From Candidatus Micrarchaeota archaeon (GTDB lineage Archaea; Micrarchaeota; Micrarchaeia; Micrarchaeales; Micrarchaeaceae), in assembly GCA_027345565.1 (NCBI GenBank), contig DAHWIF010000002.1, positions 1-54,975 on the forward strand: a stretch of DNA of 54,975 nucleotides, given 5' to 3'. Every line of letters starts with the position of its first letter. The first letter of the stretch is position 1. The position numbers and the translations under genes are program-made. This document shows, piece by piece, positions 1,750-31,547 of the stretch. Under the pieces are notes generated by a model. That model was not told where the DNA came from. It did not search any database and saw only the letters and a list, made by a program, of their open reading frames with translations.

Positions 1750-3414
1750 ATGGTGACTAGGGGCAGATTGCCTAAAAAGGACATAACCCTCAAACTGTCA
1801 TACCTGCTGCTCCTTGCGATACTCTCATTCTCCTCAGTGCTTTCGCTAGTATTTTTCCAGGGCATGAGCGTATGGGGCGACGACCCGTCCTACGCGCTGC
1901 TCATGCCAAGCATATACAACAACACCTTCAAAGAGACCGCGAACATATTCTCTGTACGGCCAGCGCTGCTGTATCCAATCGCATTTTTCTCGAAAGTGTT
2001 TGGATTCAGCGCGTTCGGCGCAGGTTTCTACGCGTTTGCAAGCTACCTCCTCTCAATAATCATCACGTTCCTCATAGGGAGAGCGCTCCACAGCAATAAG
2101 GGCGGATTGCTGGGCTCGCTCCTTTTCGCGATCTATCCTGGTATAATAAAAGCGAACAGCACCGCAGAGTCACTACTGCCGCTTGTTCTCTTCCTGAGCC
2201 TGGCCACCTTGCTGTTCATCTACGGTAAGAGGACCAAGAACAGGTGGTTCTACTTCCTCTCGGGAGCCTCAACCTTCGTCGGTGCGCTGATAAATCCTCT
2301 TGCGTATATATACGCGGTCTTTTTTGCCATTTATATAATCATGGATTTCGCCAGGTGCCTTGCCGCCAAAAATTGGAGGGCGCGCTACGGTTACCTGATG
2401 TACTTCGCCGGCTATGCCGTTGCTATACTCGCATGGGGAATCGTAAACGCCCACATCGCGTACAATGGCGGCCCGTTCTACGAGCTGACCTCAACCGGCA
2501 GCTACTTCGGCTCAGGCAGCGGGCAGATAGGAGTCTACTATCCGAATACCAGCCTTGTATATTACCCTCAGGGATTCTTCCCGTACAACTTCACAAGCGC
2601 AAGCTCGTTCTACGACCAGGCGTTCACGGAAAACGGAGCAATCATTACGTCAGGAGTAAACAATGAGGTTGGTTTCTTCGGCTATTTCGCAGTTATATTC
2701 GGGATATACCTCCTCGCGCTGCGAGACAAAAGGTATTATTTCCTGCTTGGGATGGCCGCATTCATCATCGGGTACCTCGAATTCGGTACGCAGAGCATAA
2801 CCCATTACCAGGCGATATTCAAGATCATGAGATATTCTGTGATAGCCGCCATGCCGATCGCCCTGATAACGGGCTTTGGCGTGCTGGATGCCAGTGCCAG
2901 GCTGTTCAAGAGGCGTTCTGTACTGCGGTGGGCATTCACATGGTCGATAGTCGCATTCCTGTTCGCAACCTCGCTGCCCCTCTATTATTTCTACTACATA
3001 TACAACTACAACTCGATGGTATACCCGAAAATGATAGCTGAGAGCCTGCTTGGCGCCCCTTCGCTCTCGAACTCATCGCTGTACGGGCCCATACTCACCA
3101 CCGCCTATGCCATCTACTACATGGGCTATCCGAAGATGAGGGCATTCGGCGTATACGGGACCGGTAAGAACGACACGCTTCTGCTCCAGTCATGCAGCTC
3201 CATCCCAAATGGCAGCTATGTCATCATACCAGATGCAGGCACCCTGGCAATCCTAAATTCCATAGGTCCGCTTATGATAAACGAGACTTGGGCGTACAAT
3301 CCCTCCAAGTGCAACATGACGCTATACGCCAGCCTGTATAATTACTCCAGGATTGACAGCATGGGGCTTTACGGCGAGAGCACGCTCACCGGGAACATAT
3401 ACCACAAAGGCTAG
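1750..3414 (+). CDS. GT-C membrane glycosyltransferase (ArnT/PMT, family 39-like)
   Basis: N-terminal TM followed by WGDDPSY, RP motif in the first loop, many TM segments, late RY motif, extracellular C-terminal domain. Confidence 0.75.
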   Translation: MVTRGRLPKKDITLKLSYLLLLAILSFSSVLSLVFFQGMSVWGDDPSYALLMPSIYNNTFKETANIFSVRPALLYPIAFFSKVFGFSAFGAGFYAFASYLLSIIITFLIGRALHSNKGGLLGSLLFAIYPGIIKANSTAESLLPLVLFLSLATLLFIYGKRTKNRWFYFLSGASTFVGALINPLAYIYAVFFAIYIIMDFARCLAAKNWRARYGYLMYFAGYAVAILAWGIVNAHIAYNGGPFYELTSTGSYFGSGSGQIGVYYPNTSLVYYPQGFFPYNFTSASSFYDQAFTENGAIITSGVNNEVGFFGYFAVIFGIYLLALRDKRYYFLLGMAAFIIGYLEFGTQSITHYQAIFKIMRYSVIAAMPIALITGFGVLDASARLFKRRSVLRWAFTWSIVAFLFATSLPLYYFYYIYNYNSMVYPKMIAESLLGAPSLSNSSLYGPILTTAYAIYYMGYPKMRAFGVYGTGKNDTLLLQSCSSIPNGSYVIIPDAGTLAILNSIGPLMINETWAYNPSKCNMTLYASLYNYSRIDSMGLYGESTLTGNIYHKG

Positions 3415-3488: not shown

Positions 3489-6400
3489 ATGGTTCTGGCT
3501 CGCAAGGCACAGTCCGCCATAGAGTACCTCATAACCTACGGTTGGGCCATCCTGATAATACTTGTTGCTGTTTCGTTCCTGTATTATTATGTGTTGCAGC
3601 CAACCCTGCTCGCACCTGGCTCCTGCTCCTTCCAATCGCAGATATCGTGCAGGGACATAGTCCTCGCAGCCAATACTGCGACAAGCACCGCCAATATAAT
3701 AGTCATACTGACAAACGCGCAGTCATATCCGATAAAGAGCCCCGCGCTCATCGCCAACATAAACGGCACAAACACCAGCTCTGTGTCGTGCTCGCCGGGA
3801 TACGTGCCTGCTGGAGGCGCGGTGCTCTGCCAGCTCGGATTCACGCGAGCGCTCAACCTGAACTCTTTTGTTTCAGGCAAGCTCTACCTCAGCGCCTTGA
3901 ACTGCGGATTCGGCGCGAACTACACCGCAATAGCGTCCTGCGCAACATCGGTGAAGGAGACATACCTCGGGCTGTTTAGCGCCCACGCGCAGATCGTCTC
4001 GCCGAGCACCGCACTGACGCTATCGCTGACGAGCAGCAACAACGGCGGCACAGCCGGGACCAACTCCGTCGTCACGCTTTACGCGACCGTAAAGCTGCTG
4101 AACACCCCGCTCGGTGCCGCCCCGGTCAACTTCACAGAGAGCTCTGACATACCTGTGTTAAAGCCGCAGTACGCCACCACGAGCTCCACAGGCGTCGCAG
4201 TGAGCACTATAAAGAGCGCCACGCCGACATCGGTAACGGTGACAGCCAGCTCCTTCAGCGCTACGAATTCGATATCTATAGTGTTCGCAAGCACCACAAC
4301 GACCACCTTGCTGTACAGCACAACCCTTGTATCAAGCACATCCCTCACTACGATATCCGTATACACTTCGGTATCATCAACATCGCTCTCCACCACAACT
4401 ACAACCACTACGATAACTTATCTATACGTGGCAAACTACGGCAACAGCACAGCGAGCCAGGTAAACATGTCTACCGATGCGATTACCGGCACGATCGCCC
4501 ACCTATATTACCCAACAGGTATATCCTTGTCGCCAAACGAAGCCTACGCATACGTGGCAAACTACGGCAACAATACAGTTAGCATATTCAACACCTCAAC
4601 AGACACGATAATCGCTACAATCCCAGGCTTCCACACCCCATACGGCGTCGCCTTCTCTCCCACAAGCCCATACGCATACGTTACAAACTACGGCAACAGC
4701 ACGGTAAGCATAGTGCAGGCTACCACTACACCGACATTAGGAACCATTTCCAGATTCAATTACCCATACGGAGTCTCCTTCTCGCCCAACGGCGCCTACG
4801 CCTACGTAGCAAACTACAACAACAACACAGTCAGCATAGTCAGCACCTCGTCAAGATCGATAACAGGCACCATCACAGGCTTCAGCAGCCCAGCGGGAGT
4901 CTCCTTCTCGCCCAACGGCGCCTATGCATACGTTACAAACTACAACAACGACACGGTAAGCATAGTAAACACCTCAACAGATGGCAAGACAGGCACCATC
5001 ACAGGTTTCCACAACCCATGGGGAGTCTCCATCTCACCCAACGGCCTTTATGCTTATGTAGCAAACTACGGCAACAGCACAGTAAGCATAGTAAACACCA
5101 CTTCGAAGAGCATAGCCAGCGCTTTTATCACAACTGTAACAGGCACCACCGACCCATACGGAGTCTCCTTCTCGCCCAACGGCGCCTACGCCTATGTGAC
5201 TGATGGCAGCTATGATGTATATGCTTTTACACGCTGCTATACCTATAGTGGAGTTACGCGTTGCTATGATTATTACTACCACGACCCACAAATCGCTGTG
5301 GTATCAACTTCTACAAACTCCATCATAAGCACTTTCGCTATCCCAACGTCTAGCGTTACCGTCCTGCACATGTTTTACGGAGTCTCCATCGCCCCCTCCG
5401 GCGCCTACGCCTATGCGACAGATTATGACAACAGCACTGTGAGCATAATCAACACCTCATCGCAGACTGCGACAGGCACCCTCACAGGCTTCCACGATCC
5501 ATGGGGGGTCTCCATCGCCCCCTCCGGCGCCTACGCCTACGTAGCAAACTACGGCAACAGCACAGTAAGCATAGTAAACACCTCAACAGATGCCAAGACA
5601 GGCACCATCACAGGCACCTCATATCCAAACGGAGTCTCCTTCTCGCCCAACGGTGCCTACGCCTACGTAGCAAGCTACAACAACAACGAGGTCTATGTAA
5701 TTAGCACATCTACGGACTCAATTACAGCAACCCTAACAGGCTTCCACAACCCATACGGGGTCTCCTTCTCGCCCAACGGCGCCTATGCATATGTGGCAAA
5801 CTACGGCAACAGCACAGTAAGCATAGTCAACACGTCAACAGGAACCATAACAGGCACTCTCTCGGGAGTCTATTACCCATATTCGGTATCCATAGCACCT
5901 TCAGGTACCTATGCATATGTGGGAAACGCGGACTCCACACTTAGCGTAATCAAAGCTACTCCAAACGTTATAACAGGTACCATCACAGGCTTCAGCAGCC
6001 CAGCGGGAGTCTCCATCGCCCCCTCCGGCGCCTACGCCTACGTGGCAAACTATGGTGCTAGTACAGTAAGCATACTAAACACCACTTCAAGCTCGATAAC
6101 AGGCACCATTACGGGCGTCAGCAATCCATACGGAGTCTCCATCTCGCCCAACGGCGCCTACGCCTACGTCGATTACTATTACGATGAAATATTCAAAGTC
6201 AACACCACTTCTAAATCTGTTGTAGCAACCATATCGCATCCAAACTACCCATACGGAGTCTCCATCGCCCCCTCCGGCGCCTACGCCTACGTAGCAAACT
6301 ACGGCAACAGCACAGTCAGTGTCCTAAACACATCTACAGATACGATAGTAGGCCCAATCATAGGCACCATCACAGGCTTCTACTACCCATCTGGAGTCTC

Positions 6401-6878
6401 CATCGCCCCATCCGGTTCCTATGCATATGTGACAAACTTAGGCAACGGCACAATCAGCATAGTCAGCACCTCAACAGATACTAAGACGGGCACCATCACA
6501 GGCTTCGACAGCCCATACGGAGTCTCCTTCTCGCCCAACGGCGCCTACGCCTATGTTACCGATGGCAGCTATGATGTATACGTTAGTAGGACGTGCTATA
6601 CCTATAGTGGAGTTTTGCATTGCTATTATAATTACTACTACTATCCACAAATCTCTGTTGTGTCAACGTCCACAGATGCATACAATACTTACTACATCCC
6701 AACGTCTAGCGTTGACGTCCAGCACATGTTTTACGGAGTCTCCATCGCCCCCTCCGGCGCCTACGCCTACGCGACAGATTATGACAACAGCACGATGAGC
6801 ATAATCAACACCTCGTCGATGACTGCGACAGGCACCATCACAGGCTTCCACAACCCATGGGGGATAGCAACCCCGTGA
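3489..6878 (+). CDS. Pilin-like (class III signal peptide) surface protein with Ig-like domain, Ser/Thr linker and YVTN beta-propeller repeats
   Basis: RKAQSAIEYLITYGWAILII prepilin N-terminus, Big_1-like segment (VNFT...TTSSTGVA), poly-Thr/Ser linker, 18 blades of PxGVSxSPxGAYAYVxNY. TATA-like TTTAATAA at 3459-3466. Confidence 0.9.
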   Translation: MVLARKAQSAIEYLITYGWAILIILVAVSFLYYYVLQPTLLAPGSCSFQSQISCRDIVLAANTATSTANIIVILTNAQSYPIKSPALIANINGTNTSSVSCSPGYVPAGGAVLCQLGFTRALNLNSFVSGKLYLSALNCGFGANYTAIASCATSVKETYLGLFSAHAQIVSPSTALTLSLTSSNNGGTAGTNSVVTLYATVKLLNTPLGAAPVNFTESSDIPVLKPQYATTSSTGVAVSTIKSATPTSVTVTASSFSATNSISIVFASTTTTTLLYSTTLVSSTSLTTISVYTSVSSTSLSTTTTTTTITYLYVANYGNSTASQVNMSTDAITGTIAHLYYPTGISLSPNEAYAYVANYGNNTVSIFNTSTDTIIATIPGFHTPYGVAFSPTSPYAYVTNYGNSTVSIVQATTTPTLGTISRFNYPYGVSFSPNGAYAYVANYNNNTVSIVSTSSRSITGTITGFSSPAGVSFSPNGAYAYVTNYNNDTVSIVNTSTDGKTGTITGFHNPWGVSISPNGLYAYVANYGNSTVSIVNTTSKSIASAFITTVTGTTDPYGVSFSPNGAYAYVTDGSYDVYAFTRCYTYSGVTRCYDYYYHDPQIAVVSTSTNSIISTFAIPTSSVTVLHMFYGVSIAPSGAYAYATDYDNSTVSIINTSSQTATGTLTGFHDPWGVSIAPSGAYAYVANYGNSTVSIVNTSTDAKTGTITGTSYPNGVSFSPNGAYAYVASYNNNEVYVISTSTDSITATLTGFHNPYGVSFSPNGAYAYVANYGNSTVSIVNTSTGTITGTLSGVYYPYSVSIAPSGTYAYVGNADSTLSVIKATPNVITGTITGFSSPAGVSIAPSGAYAYVANYGASTVSILNTTSSSITGTITGVSNPYGVSISPNGAYAYVDYYYDEIFKVNTTSKSVVATISHPNYPYGVSIAPSGAYAYVANYGNSTVSVLNTSTDTIVGPIIGTITGFYYPSGVSIAPSGSYAYVTNLGNGTISIVSTSTDTKTGTITGFDSPYGVSFSPNGAYAYVTDGSYDVYVSRTCYTYSGVLHCYYNYYYYPQISVVSTSTDAYNTYYIPTSSVDVQHMFYGVSIAPSGAYAYATDYDNSTMSIINTSSMTATGTITGFHNPWGIATP
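4420..6875 (+). repeat. Intragenic tandem repeat array (about 126-bp units encoding YVTN blades)
   Basis: Recurrent near-identical DNA such as GGAGTCTCCTTCTCGCCCAACGGCGCCTA and GGAGTCTCCATCGCCCCCTCCGGCGCCTACGCCTA. Larger duplication about 5153-5507 vs 6512-6863. Confidence 0.9.
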
Positions 6879-7207: not shown

Positions 7208-8473
7208 ATGGCAAATGTTGAAGACCTCATGATGATAATCAAAGACCAGGAAGAGAAGATGAGAGCTGCGCTGCGCGCCAGCGATATAATCAAACGCGAG
7301 CTCGATGTTAAAAGCGCCTCCCTAAAAACCGGGGCTGCCCATATCATAACAGGGCCCAGACGCGCCGGGAAATCCGTGTTCGCATTCCAGCTCACAAGCA
7401 ATGAAAGACTCGGCTATATGAACTTTAACGATGAAAGGATCAGCATAAGCTCTGCAGAGCTGAATAAGGTGCTTGAGGCGATATACCGGCTCAAAGGGGA
7501 CACGAACCTATTGGTCTTCGATGAAATACAGGAAGTGCCTGGATGGGAGAGGTTTGTATCCGGGCTTGTCGATTCAAAAAGGGTAGTCATAACCGGCAGC
7601 AACGCCAGGATGATGAGCAGGGAGCTCGCGACTTATCTTACAGGCAGGCATGTAGACCATGTTCTGCTCCCTTTCAGCTTTAAGGAGTTTCTTTCTTATA
7701 AAGGCGTGAATGCAGAAACCAGCCCCTCCACTACGGAAAAGGCCAGAATACTGTCGATGTTAGATGAATATATGCGCATAGGAGGCTTCCCTCTAGCCAT
7801 AAAGAACGGCGACCAGTTTCTTGTCGATCTTTACAAGGATATCATCGAACGTGATGTGGCGCAGAGATATCGCATAAAGCTTACATCGAAACTGGCAGAC
7901 GCCGCAAGATACCTGATGACCAGTATCTCTAATGAGACTAGTTACAACAAACTAAGCAAAATGCTAGAGATAAGGGGCAAGCGTACGGTGCAAAACTGGA
8001 TCGGCTATATGGAAAGTGCGTATCTGCTGTTCAAGCTGGAGAGATTCTCTTTCAAGCTGAAAGAGGCGGTTATGGCACCGAAGAAGGTATACGCCATTGA
8101 TACTGGGATGGCTAGCACCATAGCCATGCGCGTCCCTAAAAGCGCGCTTATGGAGAACGCCGTTGCGATAGAGCTGCTGCGAAGGAAGAGCTATTACAAG
8201 AGAACGATGGAGATAAATTACTGGAAGGACCATTCGCAGAGAGAGGTGGATTTTGTGCTTAGGAACGGGGGCGAGGTGGCCGGGCTAATCCAGGTCACCT
8301 ACGCTTCGGAAAAATCAGAACTAAGGGAAAGGGAGACAAAATCGCTCATTGCTGCGAGCCACGAGCTTAAGTGCAATGACCTGCTGGTTATAACGTGGGA
8401 CTATGAAGGCGAGATAAAGGAAGCCGGTAAGAAAATAAAGCTCACTCCCATGTGGAAGTGGCTTTTAGGGTAG
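7208..8473 (+). CDS. AAA+ ATPase, COG1373 type (AAA_14 + DUF4143)
   Basis: Walker A GPRRAGKS, Walker B VFDEIQ, TGS, LTGR, GGFP, PKKVYAIDTG, EVDF. Promoter AAGATTTAAATA at 7175-7186. Confidence 0.9.
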   Translation: MANVEDLMMIIKDQEEKMRAALRASDIIKRELDVKSASLKTGAAHIITGPRRAGKSVFAFQLTSNERLGYMNFNDERISISSAELNKVLEAIYRLKGDTNLLVFDEIQEVPGWERFVSGLVDSKRVVITGSNARMMSRELATYLTGRHVDHVLLPFSFKEFLSYKGVNAETSPSTTEKARILSMLDEYMRIGGFPLAIKNGDQFLVDLYKDIIERDVAQRYRIKLTSKLADAARYLMTSISNETSYNKLSKMLEIRGKRTVQNWIGYMESAYLLFKLERFSFKLKEAVMAPKKVYAIDTGMASTIAMRVPKSALMENAVAIELLRRKSYYKRTMEINYWKDHSQREVDFVLRNGGEVAGLIQVTYASEKSELRERETKSLIAASHELKCNDLLVITWDYEGEIKEAGKKIKLTPMWKWLLG

Positions 8474-8488: not shown

Positions 8489-9367
8489 TCATAAAGGAAG
8501 AAGAAGCAATATAAGGTTGCCGAGCAGCACGGCCATCACAACGCCTATGAAAATCGGCGCAGCCAAAGGTATCGGGTTCTTGTACACCGGGACCTTCTCC
8601 TTCACCCTTTTCCTTTTCAGCTCCGCTATCAGCTTTTTTGTGACGAGCCTGTCGAATCCAGGCACCCTGCTCTTTATCCTGTTTATCTGCCTTTGCTTCA
8701 TCAGGTTCCAGGCTATTATGTCCCCTTCCTCGAAGTCACCCGCAGCCAAGTACCTAACCATCGACAGGGTTATGGGCTTCTCGAAAAGCACTACAGTGAA
8801 GGAGCTGAAGGCTATCACGCATACGATAATCAATCCCTCCAGGCTGGTGCCGACCACCATCACAAGGAAGCCGAGGAAAACAAGGTATACCGCGCCAACG
8901 AGCATGGCCTTTGCCGCATCCCGCCTGGCTGCAAGGCTGCTTATCGGCTTTTTCAGCACCTTTGACGCTAGCGGTATGTAATATAGCGGTACAGCGACCA
9001 GTGCGGCTATGCCGCTGTCGACGAAGAGCGACACTATGAACGGCAGGCCTAGCTGCGGGATGTTCACCGCGATAGGCAGCGACTGGAATGGGAACATCAG
9101 CGAGAGCGCGGCGAACTCGAGCACGTCGCCCGCACCGAGCATCCCAGCCCTGTAGACCGCGTAGCCTACCCCGAGCACCACGATGGCTATGAGCAGGCTT
9201 ATTGATATTGACGCGACGTTGAAGTAGAGCAGCGTCAATACCGCTCCGTAAGCAAGGCTCGCGTACGCGAACACGCTGGGTATGTTCCTCTTGTTGAAGA
9301 TGTCGAATAGCATGTACACTAATGCGATAGCGATGAGGCTGCCAACACGCACAAAAACGAGCTCCAT
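8489..9367 (-). CDS. Prepilin/prearchaellin peptidase (A24, FlaK/PibD-like)
   Basis: First catalytic Asp in MLFDIFNKRNIP, GAGD motif, multi-TM, C-terminal IPLAAPIFIG. Confidence 0.8.
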   Translation of the reverse strand: MELVFVRVGSLIAIALVYMLFDIFNKRNIPSVFAYASLAYGAVLTLLYFNVASISISLLIAIVVLGVGYAVYRAGMLGAGDVLEFAALSLMFPFQSLPIAVNIPQLGLPFIVSLFVDSGIAALVAVPLYYIPLASKVLKKPISSLAARRDAAKAMLVGAVYLVFLGFLVMVVGTSLEGLIIVCVIAFSSFTVVLFEKPITLSMVRYLAAGDFEEGDIIAWNLMKQRQINRIKSRVPGFDRLVTKKLIAELKRKRVKEKVPVYKNPIPLAAPIFIGVVMAVLLGNLILLLLPL

Positions 9368-28217: not shown

Positions 28218-31200
28218 TTATCCCTTCTTGGCTTTTGACTCCATCGCCGCTATGCCGCCTATCGCTCTCTTGAGTTCATCGAAGTAGCCCAGGATGCCCT
28301 CCTCCTTCATGAACTTCATCCTGGCGAGCTTCTGTTTCGCATCTGTCTGCTGCAGTTGATCGACGGTCACGCCCCTCTCTATCGCGCTCTTTTCCGCAGC
28401 ATCAAGCAGCAGGATTGACTTGAGCATGAGGTGCTGCTTCTTCGTCGAGCTGTACGTATCTACCTCATCGTATGCGCTCTGCTGCAGGTAGTCCTCCCGT
28501 ATCACCTTCGCTATGTCGAGCACCTCCTTCTCCTTCTCCGGCAGCGCATCGTACCCAACCAGCTGGACCACCTCGTTTATCTCCGCCTCCTTCTGCAGTA
28601 TCGCCATGGTAGCGGAGCGCATTTCGTTCCACTCCTTGTCTATGTTCGCGTCGTACCACTTAGCAAGGTCGTCGATGTACAGCGAATAGCTGTTGAGCCA
28701 GTTTATCGACGGGAAATGTCTCCTGTTAGCGAGCGACGCGTCTAGCGCCCAGAACACTCTAGTTACCCTGAGCGTATTCTGGGACACCGGCTCGGATGTA
28801 TCCCCTCCAGGAGGTGAAACCGCCCCAATAGCGGTAACCGATCCGACAGCGCCGTTGAGCACATGCACCCTGCCTGCGCGTTCATAGAACTCAGCCACCT
28901 TCCTCCCAAGATAGGCGGGATATCCCTCCTCTCCAGGCATCTCCTCCAGCCTTCCGGATATCTCCCTCAGGGCTTCGGCCCATCTCGATGTGCTGTCTGC
29001 CATTAGCGCGACATTGTATCCCATATCCCTGTAGTACTCTGCCAGTGTTATTCCAGTGTATATGCTTGATTCCCTAGCAGCAACAGGCATGTTTGACGTA
29101 TTAGCGATTAGGATTGTCCTATCCATAAGCGGCAACCCGCTTTTTGGATCCTTTAACTGCGGGAAAGTGGTCAGTATTTCAGCCATCTCATTTGACCTCT
29201 CTCCACAACCTATGTATACTATGACCTCTGCGTCTGACCATTTGGCTAGCTGATGCTGTATAACTGTATTATGCAGCAATAACGGGCCGTGCCCGCCTAC
29301 AAAATTGTGGAGTTCGGGTATCTCTACGTCGAATACGTCTTTTGGCATGTTCGACTGCTCGATCGCCTTGACCTCGTCAAAGAATAAACTTCCAGAGAAT
29401 TCGCGCAGCGACAGCAGTTCTTCAGGCACCTCCATCCAGCGAGATAGCCTTTCAATAATCTTGGCCAGGGTAGTAATGCATATCCTGCTGTTGTCCTTCA
29501 GGTAGCGCTCAGTATACACGCCGGTCCGCATCAGTCTGTTTTGGATTCCTCTCATCTTAAGAATGCTCTTAAGCGCGCCAGGGACTGGTATCGCATCATT
29601 GTTAGAGTACCTTGTTTTTTGACTTTCTACGATTTTTAGGAAACGTGCGGATTTTGCTCCGCGGATAGCCGCACCCAATTTATGCGCCTCTTTTACACCC
29701 CCAACCTTTACAGATATCCTTGATGTCCCGTCTTTTCTGGTTTTACCGATTGATGACACCAAGCCAAGGCGCAGAAGCACGAAGCTGAACTGCTCTATAA
29801 TTTTGCGGCTTTTTGATGTTATCTCTACCCTGCCGCCGTTGACATCCACGCTTCCATCGCATGCTATGTATGACCCTATGAAGGCGGTAAGAGACGCATC
29901 GCTGGACTTCAGAAGCAGCTCTGGTATGCTGGCGTTGCCTGCCTTGCCCTTATACGGGATACCAAGCGAGACAAGGAAATCAAATAATGCTTTGCAATCA
30001 ATTTGTGCAACCATCGATGTGTGCGTCTTAGGGTGCCTGTATATATATGGATCAACGCTGAACAGGCTCCTGGCAAGATATGCATATCTGTCCAGTATCT
30101 CTTTTGATGTGTTGTAGAACCTTATCGAGTAGCTCCCGTTTTTCAGGTTTCCATCAGCTATAATGTAGCCAAGATATTCGGCCAGTTCCGGACTCATGAT
30201 TCTTGGCACCTTTATCCTCTTGCCGTGGTAAGAGATTATTGTATCTGGGTCCGGCGAGGACTCTCCAAAAATCATATGGATGAGCTCCAATGGCACTTGT
30301 CTCCTGATTCTTAGGTACTGGTTGAATTTTGACGGGATTCTCCCTTTCTTTATTGCCGATTTCAGTAGCACCCTGAACCTCGCGTTTAGATTTTCATCTG
30401 CGCTGAAAAGCTTTTTGGAATGCAAAAGCGAAATTAAGCGTATTTTCTGGTCCGAAAGTTCCAAACTTACCTTTCGCGGGCATGCAAGATAATCCCCCTT
30501 TTGTATCGTTCCGGCTTCCTTCTCAACAATCGTGCAATCAGATAGGGTGAAGAGTCTATGAATCGGCGTGACCTCCACCTTCTTACCGGATTTTGTGAGC
30601 ACTTTTATTGTGGAGTCGGTTTTGCCGCGATAGACGTGTTTTGGCTCACGTATGTCAAATTTATTTCCGTTAAGAGATAACGCACTGGGGTTTCCCAGGC
30701 CCGACACATCGTATAGCTCCTCGTTATCATTCTTATATACAAGTTTGCCCTTTGCTCTGCCCTCCCTGTACACCTCCTCAATACTCACTATTCTTCCATT
30801 TCCCATCATCAGCAGAGTGTCCTTGTCCACGCACTTGCCACTTCCGAACGGCCCAGGAACAGCAGCAGTACCTCCCTTTGCCACTGGGAAAAGAGTATCG
30901 ATTATCCTTTGGCCGGTTATCAATGGCACATCCGGCGGCAGCTTATCTATCACCGGTCGCGCTACCCTGACTGGCCACTTCTGCATCAGTGAGATATCGA
31001 AAGAAGAACCTCCATCGCTAACCGAAGCAATGCTCTCAGTTACGCTATATTTTCCGTCTGAAATGTGCGTTATCTTCCCAGAAATTCCATTTGGTACAAG
31101 TACCCTATGGGTGACCAAACCGGTTTCCTTCACCTCACCCATTATGTCGCCAGGTTTAACTTTATCTCCGGCTTTCTTTGTTGGGATGAATTCCCATTTC

Positions 31201-31547
31201 TTCTTTGGATCCAACGAGTCAACATTGACGCCTCTCCCAATAAAGTCGCCGCTTTTTATCCTTATCTTGTCTAGCGGCCTTTGGATTCCATCGTATATTG
31301 ACCCGATAAGTCCAGGGCCCAGGCTTACCGATAGTTGAGAGCCTGTATCCTCTACTGGAGCGCCCGGCTTGAGCCCCGAGGTGTCCTCGTATACCTGGAT
31401 GGTCGCCCTGCCGGAGTTGAGCCTTATTATCTCGCCCACAAGCTCCTCTTCCCCCACCTTGACCACGTTGTACATCTTCGGGTCTTTAAGGTTCTCCGCC
31501 GTCACTACCGGCCCAGAGATCCTGAATATCCTTCCTTTGTCTCCCAT
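28218..31547 (-). CDS. atpA: A/V-type ATP synthase subunit A, intein-containing precursor (587 aa after splicing)
   Basis: PGPFGSGK|intein|[48 protein letters not shown]. Confidence 0.97.
29268..30833 (-). mobile_element. Intein (522 aa) with LAGLIDADG homing endonuclease, inserted in the atpA P-loop (VMA-b type site)
   Basis: Starts with Cys (CVDKDT), block B TPIHRLF, LAGLIDADG blocks YLGYIIADG and [10 protein letters not shown], block F VFDVEI, ends HN followed by Thr. Confidence 0.95.

Follow-up and report, generated by a model that had tools for sequence, protein, structure and literature searches.

The window analysed here, i.e. the whole stretch of 54,975 nucleotides (nt) that forms positions 1 to 54,975 of contig DAHWIF010000002.1 (forward strand), belongs to the genome of a Candidatus Micrarchaeota archaeon (DPANN) from mine drainage (assembly GCA_027345565.1, hereafter G000; 600 kb, 16 contigs, 84% complete). 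A single open reading frame (ORF) at positions 3489-6878 encodes a surface protein of 1129 amino acids (aa), which carries two long tyrosine-rich loops, designated loop A and loop B, within an array of YVTN-type β-propeller blades. The YVTN repeat model TIGR02276 matched 15 stretches of this protein, with 285 bits against a cut-off of 27.85 (E 7.9e-87). When split at the YAY[VA] anchor, the array falls into a partial blade 0 and 17 full blades, each of 41-46 aa, with the exception of blade 6 (73 aa) and blade 16 (72 aa). In these two blades an insert takes the place of the usual turn between strands 2 and 3, which has 6 residues in 1198 of approximately 1650 blades of the homologues.

An earlier reading of the window, made from its letters alone and referred to below as the sequence-only reading, had located both inserts in blades 6 and 16, and its coordinates and translations proved exact. 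Its tally of the 31 aligned codons was also right: 20 are identical in the two loops, one differs synonymously and 10 change the amino acid. It had further described a core, C-Y-T-Y-S-G-V-x-x-C-Y, as invariant; this holds for five of the six loops seen in this study, while the first loop of the related protein P0004 reads CFTYSGKCY. Both cysteines are present in all six. Tyrosine makes up 26-32% of the loop residues, as compared with 9.8% in the other blades. A 21-mer of the loops, TGCTATACCTATAGTGGAGTT, occurs twice in the window, where none is expected (100 shuffles), and nowhere else in the 600 kb assembly with up to three mismatches. The distinguished features are summarized in Table 1.

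Table 1. Features distinguished in the surface-protein gene and its neighbourhood. AF2, AlphaFold2; pLDDT, predicted local distance difference test score.
Feature	Position	Strand	Description and evidence
Membrane glycosyltransferase gene (PMT_2 family)	1750..3414	+	Directly upstream; PF13231, E 3e-7, 31.2 bits vs cut-off 26.1
Surface-protein gene, 1129 aa	3489..6878	+	Pilin-like N-terminus, immunoglobulin (Ig)-like stalk, Ser/Thr linker, 18 YVTN blades; ORF, TIGR02276, Pfam YNCE and Lactonase above cut-off
N-terminal pilin-like module	3489..4001	+	Basic start, hydrophobic helix (residues 10-36), β-rich domain with 6 Cys; sequence and AF2 (block pLDDT 43-83)
Ig-like (Big_1-like) domain, below Pfam cut-off	4020..4268	+	PF02369, E 5.8e-5, 23.6 bits vs cut-off 34.9, residues 178-260
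YVTN blade array	4419..6875	+	Partial blade 0, full blades 1-17 and, at the C-terminal end, one additional first strand; anchors and spacings, AF2, Foldseek
Two-blade unit A (blades 6 and 7)	5151..5495	+	Paralogue of unit B by nt identity
Loop A	5202..5294	+	31 codons, Tyr 8/31; Cys codons 5235-5237 and 5262-5264; hairpin 581-586/589-594 in low-confidence full-length model
Segment after loop A (strand 3 to end of blade 6)	5295..5369	+	Old A-type sequence, not homogenised
Two-blade unit B (blades 16 and 17) and terminal strand	6510..6875	+	Orthologous units in G003 (L015), L094 and P0004
Loop B	6561..6653	+	31 codons, Tyr 10/31; Cys codons 6594-6596 and 6621-6623; AF2 hairpin 1029-1039/1042-1051
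Prepilin (class III signal) peptidase gene, family A24	8489..9367	-	PF01478, E 8.5e-8

Modelled structure of the propeller and its hairpins

Residues 796-1129, modelled with AF2 from an alignment of 38 sequences, form seven four-stranded blades (pLDDT 86.2; predicted template modelling score, pTM, 0.85). The best Foldseek match of this model is chain 1l0q_A (query TM-score, TMq, 0.83; root-mean-square deviation 1.7 Å over 323 columns), and a phmmer comparison with 1l0q gave an E of 2.4e-46. In a full-length model, based on an alignment of 11 sequences, the usable parts were limited to the N-terminal domain, blades 1-5 and the register of the hairpin.

Loop B is modelled as a two-stranded hairpin, with strands of 11 and 10 residues joined by a turn at S1040-G1041, and the pLDDT of its three 10-residue blocks is 70, 93 and 71. 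In the strand register of this model C1036 lies opposite C1045. Loop A adopts the same register in the low-confidence full-length model, where C583 faces C592. Only four cysteines are found in the 819 residues of the propeller region (residues 311-1129), and these are the two loop pairs. The Cys-stapled β-hairpin proposed in the sequence-only reading is thus borne out by the models: each loop is predicted to be a hairpin stapled by a disulfide bond, as suggested by the facing and conserved cysteine pair. Since the hairpin strands are twice as long as those of the blades (10-11 versus 5-6 residues), the hairpin is predicted to project from the propeller. In propellers of this topology, the link from strand 2 to strand 3 emerges on the face that also bears the loops between blades, usually the binding face.

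The propeller region contains 23 N-x-S/T sequons, none of which lies in blade 6 or 16. Most of the ordinary blades (positions 4509-6875) carry sequons at the strand 2-3 turn (N-S-T) and at the strand 3-4 turn (N-T-S). The lack of sequons in the two loop-bearing blades, together with the tyrosine-rich hairpin, points to a glycan-free aromatic surface on a domain that is probably glycosylated.

Blade 13 (positions 6123-6245) has another tyrosine-rich strand 2-3 turn, VDYYYDEIFKV, which is identical in genome G003 (locus L015) and nearly so in blade 8 of P0004. This turn adds a second, small aromatic element to the face that bears the hairpins.

Selection on the loops and mosaic gene conversion

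Among the 41 genomes, 93 loci and 172 proteins scanned, the hairpin was confined to four related lineages. Beyond G000, the lineages with the C-terminal loop are represented by protein P0004 (920 aa, used in protein comparisons only), the closest related genome, G003, and metagenome contig L094. YVTN matches as such were obtained in 12 of the 41 genomes (G000 and 40 relatives). A search for proteins of similar length returned 15 matches, of which P0004 alone has the loops and P0005 has a tyrosine-rich version devoid of cysteines; the loop was present in none of the seven matches of a search among shorter proteins. Of 35,911 matches in a library of 1.84 billion representative proteins, only P0004 carries the loop among the best 150. 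The loop peptide alone, compared with 5.8 billion proteins (longer proteins), again recovered only P0004, from eight candidates.

The excess of replacements between the two loops had been taken as a sign of diversifying selection. A raw count of 10 replacement codons to one synonymous codon is not a dN/dS ratio, and it overstates diversification, as several of the codons carry two or three base differences. We therefore estimated nonsynonymous (dN) and synonymous (dS) divergence by the Nei-Gojobori method. Between loops A and B, dN is 0.195 and dS 0.276, which gives a dN/dS ratio (omega) of approximately 0.7; for the flank and blade 7 of the same two units, dN is 0.046, dS 0.127 and omega approximately 0.36. 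Between the orthologous B loops of G000 and G003, dN is 0.138 and dS 0.644, so that omega is 0.22, against 0.17-0.19 in the rest of the sequence. In the two deeper comparisons the loop changes less than the propeller scaffold. The loops of G000 and L094 share 13 identical codons, 13 that differ synonymously only and five with replacements (dN 0.141 versus 0.204 in the scaffold), and those of G003 and L094 have 14 identical, 11 synonymous and six replacement codons (dN 0.136 versus 0.194). As judged from these orthologous sequences, purifying selection acts on loop B no less strongly than on the propeller scaffold.

Between species, 4-6 of the 31 loop residues differ. Invariance across strains and reads and a dN/dS no higher than that of the blades had both been named beforehand as refuting the diversification that the sequence-only reading ascribed to the loops; the loops proved near-invariant across lineages, and their dN/dS is no higher than that of the blades. 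Replacements between orthologues fall at loop positions 2-5, 10-11, 19 and 23.

The possibility that the hairpins are hypervariable binding sites under ongoing diversifying selection, in which a few contact positions track variation of the host surface, draws on the paralogues, whose loops have a dN four times that of their scaffold (0.195 versus 0.046). Moreover, the positions that vary between loops A and B (8-11, 19-20, 23-24 and 27-28) overlap those that vary between orthologues (3, 4, 10, 11, 19 and 23), and among four orthologues position 23 is occupied by four residues (Y, D, A and N) and position 19 by three. Against this stand whole-loop omega values that never exceed 1, the loop dN below scaffold dN in the two deepest comparisons, where 11-13 of the 31 codons differ only synonymously, and a set of sequences too small for a test of single sites. 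We consider such diversification unlikely, although far from negligible.

Variation within a sample was sought in Logan contigs of sequencing runs. Run X1, a mine drainage metagenome, is the only one that contains the sequence (share 0.73). Its contigs run unbranched and without a single difference through loop A (positions 5170-5395) and loop B (positions 6527-6751), and all listed variant letters lie outside the loops; contigs drop rare variants, so this absence is weak evidence against variation. Two other runs of the same study, X2 and X3, contain next to none of the sequence, and their short pieces, less than 90% alike, probably derive from other organisms.

In the same X1 contigs, two joints within the blade array leave out 762 and 733 bases (5686-6449 and 5792-6526), with sides of 24 and 29 letters, respectively. 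These joints may represent variants with a shorter array in the population or artefacts of the assembly graph induced by the repeats, and they were disregarded.

How the two loops came to differ in this way is indicated by the distribution of differences along units A and B. The two pairs of blades, 6 with 7 and 16 with 17, are mutual closest relatives: blades 6 and 16 share 85% nt identity and blades 7 and 17 share 94%, as compared with 73% for the neighbouring blades 5 and 15. Loops of both types, A and B, are present in protein P0004, which suggests that the duplication is older than the split of these lineages. Nevertheless, of 51 sites at which the B units of G000 and G003 differ, unit A of G000 matches its own B unit at 34, that of G003 at 12 and neither at five. 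In the left flank and in blade 7/17, the two units of G000 differ from each other at 4 of 51 and 7 of 126 nt, fewer than the 9 of 51 and 14 of 126 nt that separate the orthologues. In the segment that follows the loop the order is reversed, with 21 of 72 nt differing between A and B and 8 of 72 between B and its G003 orthologue.

Within the loop itself, the 11 variable codons are grouped in four clusters (permutation p 0.009), and in five of these codons two or three bases are changed. The A-type sequence STFAIPT is common to unit A of G000 and the first loop blade of P0004; L094 has STFSIPT. Residues of the G000-A patches also resemble the A loop of P0004, with a basic residue before the second cysteine (R versus K) and acidic ones before the closing P-x-I (D versus EE). 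Read together, these alignments show that units A and B have been shaped by mosaic gene conversion. The 10:1 excess of replacements arose because conversion erased synonymous differences around old, saturated patches.

The array as a whole has also changed in size. It comprises 18 blades in G000 and 13 in P0004, the truncated gene of G003 (L015) has at least 16, and the hairpin blades lie 10 blades apart in G000 and four in P0004. Such differences between close orthologues indicate that the array grows and shrinks by unequal recombination. In the comparison of blades, an apparent identity of 100% between blades 11 and 16 was spurious, as it resulted from free end gaps, and was disregarded.

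Targeted mutagenesis and silent cassettes had also been put forward as a source of the differences. According to this proposal, the loops would be variable regions of a diversity-generating retroelement (DGR) or expression sites fed from silent copies. Short variable patches set in a conserved frame bear a superficial likeness to such systems, and DGRs are known in DPANN archaea. None of the signs of such a mechanism was found: the G000 assembly (84% complete) yielded no match to the reverse transcriptase family PF00078 (the control was positive in 3 of 14 reference genomes), and no third copy of the loop or template repeat was detected in the 16 contigs (600 kb) by the 21-mer with up to three mismatches, by blastn (word size 7) or by tblastn. 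The 17 base differences between loops A and B comprise 11 types of substitution, with adenine in loop A at two of them and in loop B at four, while 23 adenines are invariant in both loops; there is no adenine bias. The loops are, in addition, conserved between species. We give this mechanism almost no credence.

Finally, the sequence-only reading was correct in noting that the loops favour codons ending in T. In either loop 45% of the codons have T at the third position, as against 13% of those in the other blades and 14.7% across the 301 long ORFs of the genome. Given the amino acid sequence, approximately seven T-ending codons would be expected per loop and 14 are observed (p approximately 0.003 per loop, the two loops not being independent), a level attained by no more than 0.8% of the 31-codon windows in these long ORFs. 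The guanine-plus-cytosine content of the loops is 37-42%, as compared with 52% for the other blades and for the window.

This composition would fit an insert acquired horizontally from a donor of lower guanine-plus-cytosine content and later duplicated, which is the part of the proposed cassette import that the data accommodate; the donor is the part that did not emerge, since the only protein recovered with the loop peptide was P0004 and the scan of 172 homologues and 93 loci revealed no hairpin outside the clade. The two-fold excess of T-ending codons is kept in the G003 loop and partly in that of L094 (10 of 31), despite saturated synonymous sites between the lineages, which points to a maintained bias rather than to an import that has not yet ameliorated. 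Slow translation that favours folding or disulfide formation is one idea as to why such a bias might be kept.

A local origin of the insert would be sufficient. Of the 170 YVTN proteins scanned, 9 others have shorter Cys-pair turns, e.g. NCNSSCFNTGADN, at this very point between strands 2 and 3; they amount to 13 blades, roughly one per propeller where judged by eye. With such turns already present in relatives and no donor found, the long hairpin looks like a lineage-specific elaboration, and we consider import highly improbable.

A candidate adhesive finger at the cell surface

Taken together, the most probable interpretation, to which we assign a probability of about 0.6, is that loops A and B represent paralogous copies of one conserved hairpin, with a structural and adhesive role, and are not hypervariable. 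We propose that the pilin-like signal or anchor helix with its small domain, the Ig-like domain and the Ser/Thr-rich stalk would carry the 18-blade YVTN array at the cell surface. In two blades, the 6-residue, usually sequon-bearing turn between strands 2 and 3 is replaced by a predicted hairpin of approximately 25 residues, whose facing cysteine pair, beside the S-G turn, would hold the tyrosine-lined strands together as a rigid, glycan-free aromatic finger on a propeller otherwise heavily decorated with sequons. This finger may be a contact site for adhesion, the likeliest target being the surface (glycans or membrane interface) of a wall-less Thermoplasmatales host, or else the biofilm matrix. 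Between species, purifying selection keeps the hairpin, save for a small number of positions next to the cysteines (loop positions 3-5, 10-11, 19 and 23). In G000, units A and B have recently been homogenised in their scaffold and hairpin core, with the four short patches and the segment after the loop retaining older A- or B-type sequence.

An adhesive role is most likely in view of the composition of the hairpin, the predicted way in which it stands out from a surface protein, the life of Micrarchaeota as symbionts (described in PMC5498576 and PMC8975820) and the analogy with the adhesin Bap1 discussed below. The role in host recognition suggested in the sequence-only reading is plausible for these putative contact sites.

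Several observations weigh against this interpretation. Among the four to six sequences compared, loop positions 19 (L/Q/R/L/T) and 23 (Y/D/A/N/D) vary in nearly every loop, and positive selection may act at these single sites. The predicted protrusion rests on strand lengths and on the location of the hairpin outside the 1l0q-like core. The division of the 18-blade array into propellers may differ from the seven-bladed ring into which AF2 closes seven consecutive repeats; blade number varies between the orthologues, and the full-length model is poor (pLDDT 42.7). Among 12 other genomes of the genus, only G003 has the gene; metagenome-assembled genomes often lose repeats of this kind. The target of the hairpin, be it host, matrix, mineral or self, is entirely inferred. 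The interpretation does not account for the T-ending codons, whose two-fold excess persists in G003 and to some extent in L094.

The strong conservation of the hairpin core under purifying selection would also suit a purely structural element, i.e. an arm that locks neighbouring propellers together or an oligomerisation or lattice contact of the surface protein. Tyrosine-rich β-surfaces are common in protein-protein interfaces, and the presence of Cys-pair turns at the same position in other YVTN proteins (the 13 blades mentioned above) suggests a structural role of this position. Nothing speaks directly against such an arm, but the variable distance between the two hairpins (10 blades here and four in P0004) is hard to square with a fixed lock between domains, and other YVTN propellers do without the hairpin, as the 1198 blades with a 6-residue turn indicate. 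We consider an arm of this kind, the main rival of the adhesive finger, unlikely, although not negligible.

A more specific version of the adhesive hairpin can also be envisaged, in which host-recognition fingers would have a fixed tyrosine frame and positions 10-11, 19-20, 23-24 and 27-28 would set the host strain or molecule. Loops A and B would then represent two specificities, shuffled by gene conversion and by the gain and loss of blades. We regard this as speculative and improbable. If true, it would constitute recombination-based variation of an adhesin, without a DGR, in a DPANN symbiont with a genome of 0.6-0.8 Mb.

The N-terminal part of the protein starts with MVLARKAQSAIEYLITYGWAILIIL, i.e. 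a basic stretch followed by a hydrophobic helix, and a putative class III motif is visible as RKA/QSAIEYLITYGWAILIIL, which is common to proteins P0005 and P0023. Basic residues, a small residue at position -1 and a subsequent hydrophobic helix are what we take to be the appearance of an archaeal class III (prepilin-type) signal. In the full-length AF2 model the helix spans residues 10-36 and the β-strands of the module lie within residues 45-166. No match to Pfam (PF04021) or NCBIfam was obtained for this module even at an E of 5, nor any PDB sequence match at an E of up to 10. Its look-alikes in a protein atlas are small DPANN proteins; in one cluster (score 0.91), 20% of the members carry PF04021, which we take as no more than a lead. 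On the basis of sequence, we describe the N-terminus as pilin-like, with a putative prepilin-type signal or anchor.

The N-terminal domain has cysteines at residues 46, 54, 101, 114, 139 and 151. These six suggest three disulfides, and together with the loop pairs all cysteines of the protein can be paired.

The A24 prepilin peptidase gene listed in Table 1 is the sole match to this family in the G000 genome. It is located 1.6 kb downstream of the adhesin gene, on the opposite strand, and in G003 it directly adjoins the adhesin gene. Three matches to PilB-type ATPases (PF00437) lie on other contigs of G000; the adhesin gene is placed beside the peptidase and outside the pilus locus. The PMT_2-family gene upstream is, from its context only, a possible glycosylation partner.

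Two further observations concern the gene neighbourhood. An AAA_14/DUF4143 ATPase gene (positions 7208-8473, plus strand) separates the adhesin and prepilin peptidase genes and is absent from that position in G003; it may be a small insertion. Within the ATP synthase operon (approximately 23.9-33.6 kb), the gene for the catalytic subunit of the A-type ATPase (positions 28221-31547, minus strand; 1109 aa) contains an intein with a LAGLIDADG endonuclease domain (Intein_splicing, LAGLIDADG_3).

Comparison with known systems

Antibody complementarity-determining regions with disulfide-braced hairpins are rich in tyrosine, have the disulfide near the tip and vary at a few positions within a fixed frame. 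The loops described here share with them the tyrosine-rich hairpin, the cysteine pair near the tip and the small number of variable positions. They differ in that no diversification machinery was found, only 4-6 of the 31 residues change between species and the scaffold is a propeller rather than an Ig domain. Variable proteins of DGRs are likewise surface proteins in which short variable patches are set in a conserved frame. This frame-and-patch arrangement in a DPANN-type surface protein is the extent of the likeness, as the reverse transcriptase, the template repeat and the adenine pattern were not found in G000 and the loops are conserved between species. An antibody-like diversification is not supported. 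A replacement-to-synonymous ratio of 10:1 between internal repeats can stem from mosaic gene conversion, and diversification of this type should not be read from such a ratio without comparisons of orthologues.

The short Cys-pair turns of other archaeal YVTN proteins (P0006, P0007, P0008, P0034, P0108, P0125 and others; e.g. N-C-N-S-S-C-F-N-T-G-A-D-N) have the same insertion point and two cysteines. Those turns are 13-22 residues long, with a C-x3-C or similar spacing, and are not tyrosine-rich, whereas the loops have 31 residues, C-x8-C on opposite strands and 26-32% tyrosine.

For the proposed sticky finger, a functional analogy is provided by the biofilm adhesin Bap1 of Vibrio cholerae, in which, according to the available part of the report, a 57-residue aromatic loop makes the protein adhere non-specifically to lipids as well as to abiotic surfaces (Huang et al. 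2023, PMC10102183). In both cases an aromatic-rich insert is present in a propeller-containing adhesin. The Bap1 loop, as described there, is located in a β-prism and not in the propeller, is rich in Trp and Lys, lacks a cysteine staple and is unrelated in sequence, so the comparison is an analogy only.

The available parts of the articles on Micrarchaeota symbiosis name no molecule that attaches these archaea to Thermoplasmatales hosts (PMC5498576, PMC8975820), and the words 'pili', 'pilin', 'propeller' and 'adhesion' do not occur in PMC8975820. In this context the hairpin is a small and well-defined candidate contact element (31 residues with two cysteines) for attachment of Micrarchaeota to their hosts. 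A search of the literature on β-propeller adhesins of Micrarchaeota returned nothing on this type of protein beyond PMC5498576. There, YVTN/PKD surface proteins of Ca. Mancarchaeum acidiphilum Mia14 were proposed to take part in cell-cell interaction (Golyshina et al. 2017). These are, to the extent covered by the available text, likewise large, secreted, strain-specific YVTN proteins of a micrarchaeon from an acid mine with a Thermoplasmatales host; that text does not mention hairpin inserts or a pilin-like N-terminus, and the likeness is by description only.

The surface-layer YVTN domain of Methanosarcina mazei (PDB 1l0q; PDB title, Jing et al. 2002) belongs to the same repeat family and fold and also derives from an archaeal cell-surface protein. 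It consists of seven plain blades followed by a PKD domain, while the protein described here has 18 blades behind a pilin-like N-terminus, two of them with a 31-residue tyrosine-rich hairpin with a predicted cysteine staple. The protein is thus a variant of an already known type of archaeal YVTN surface protein.

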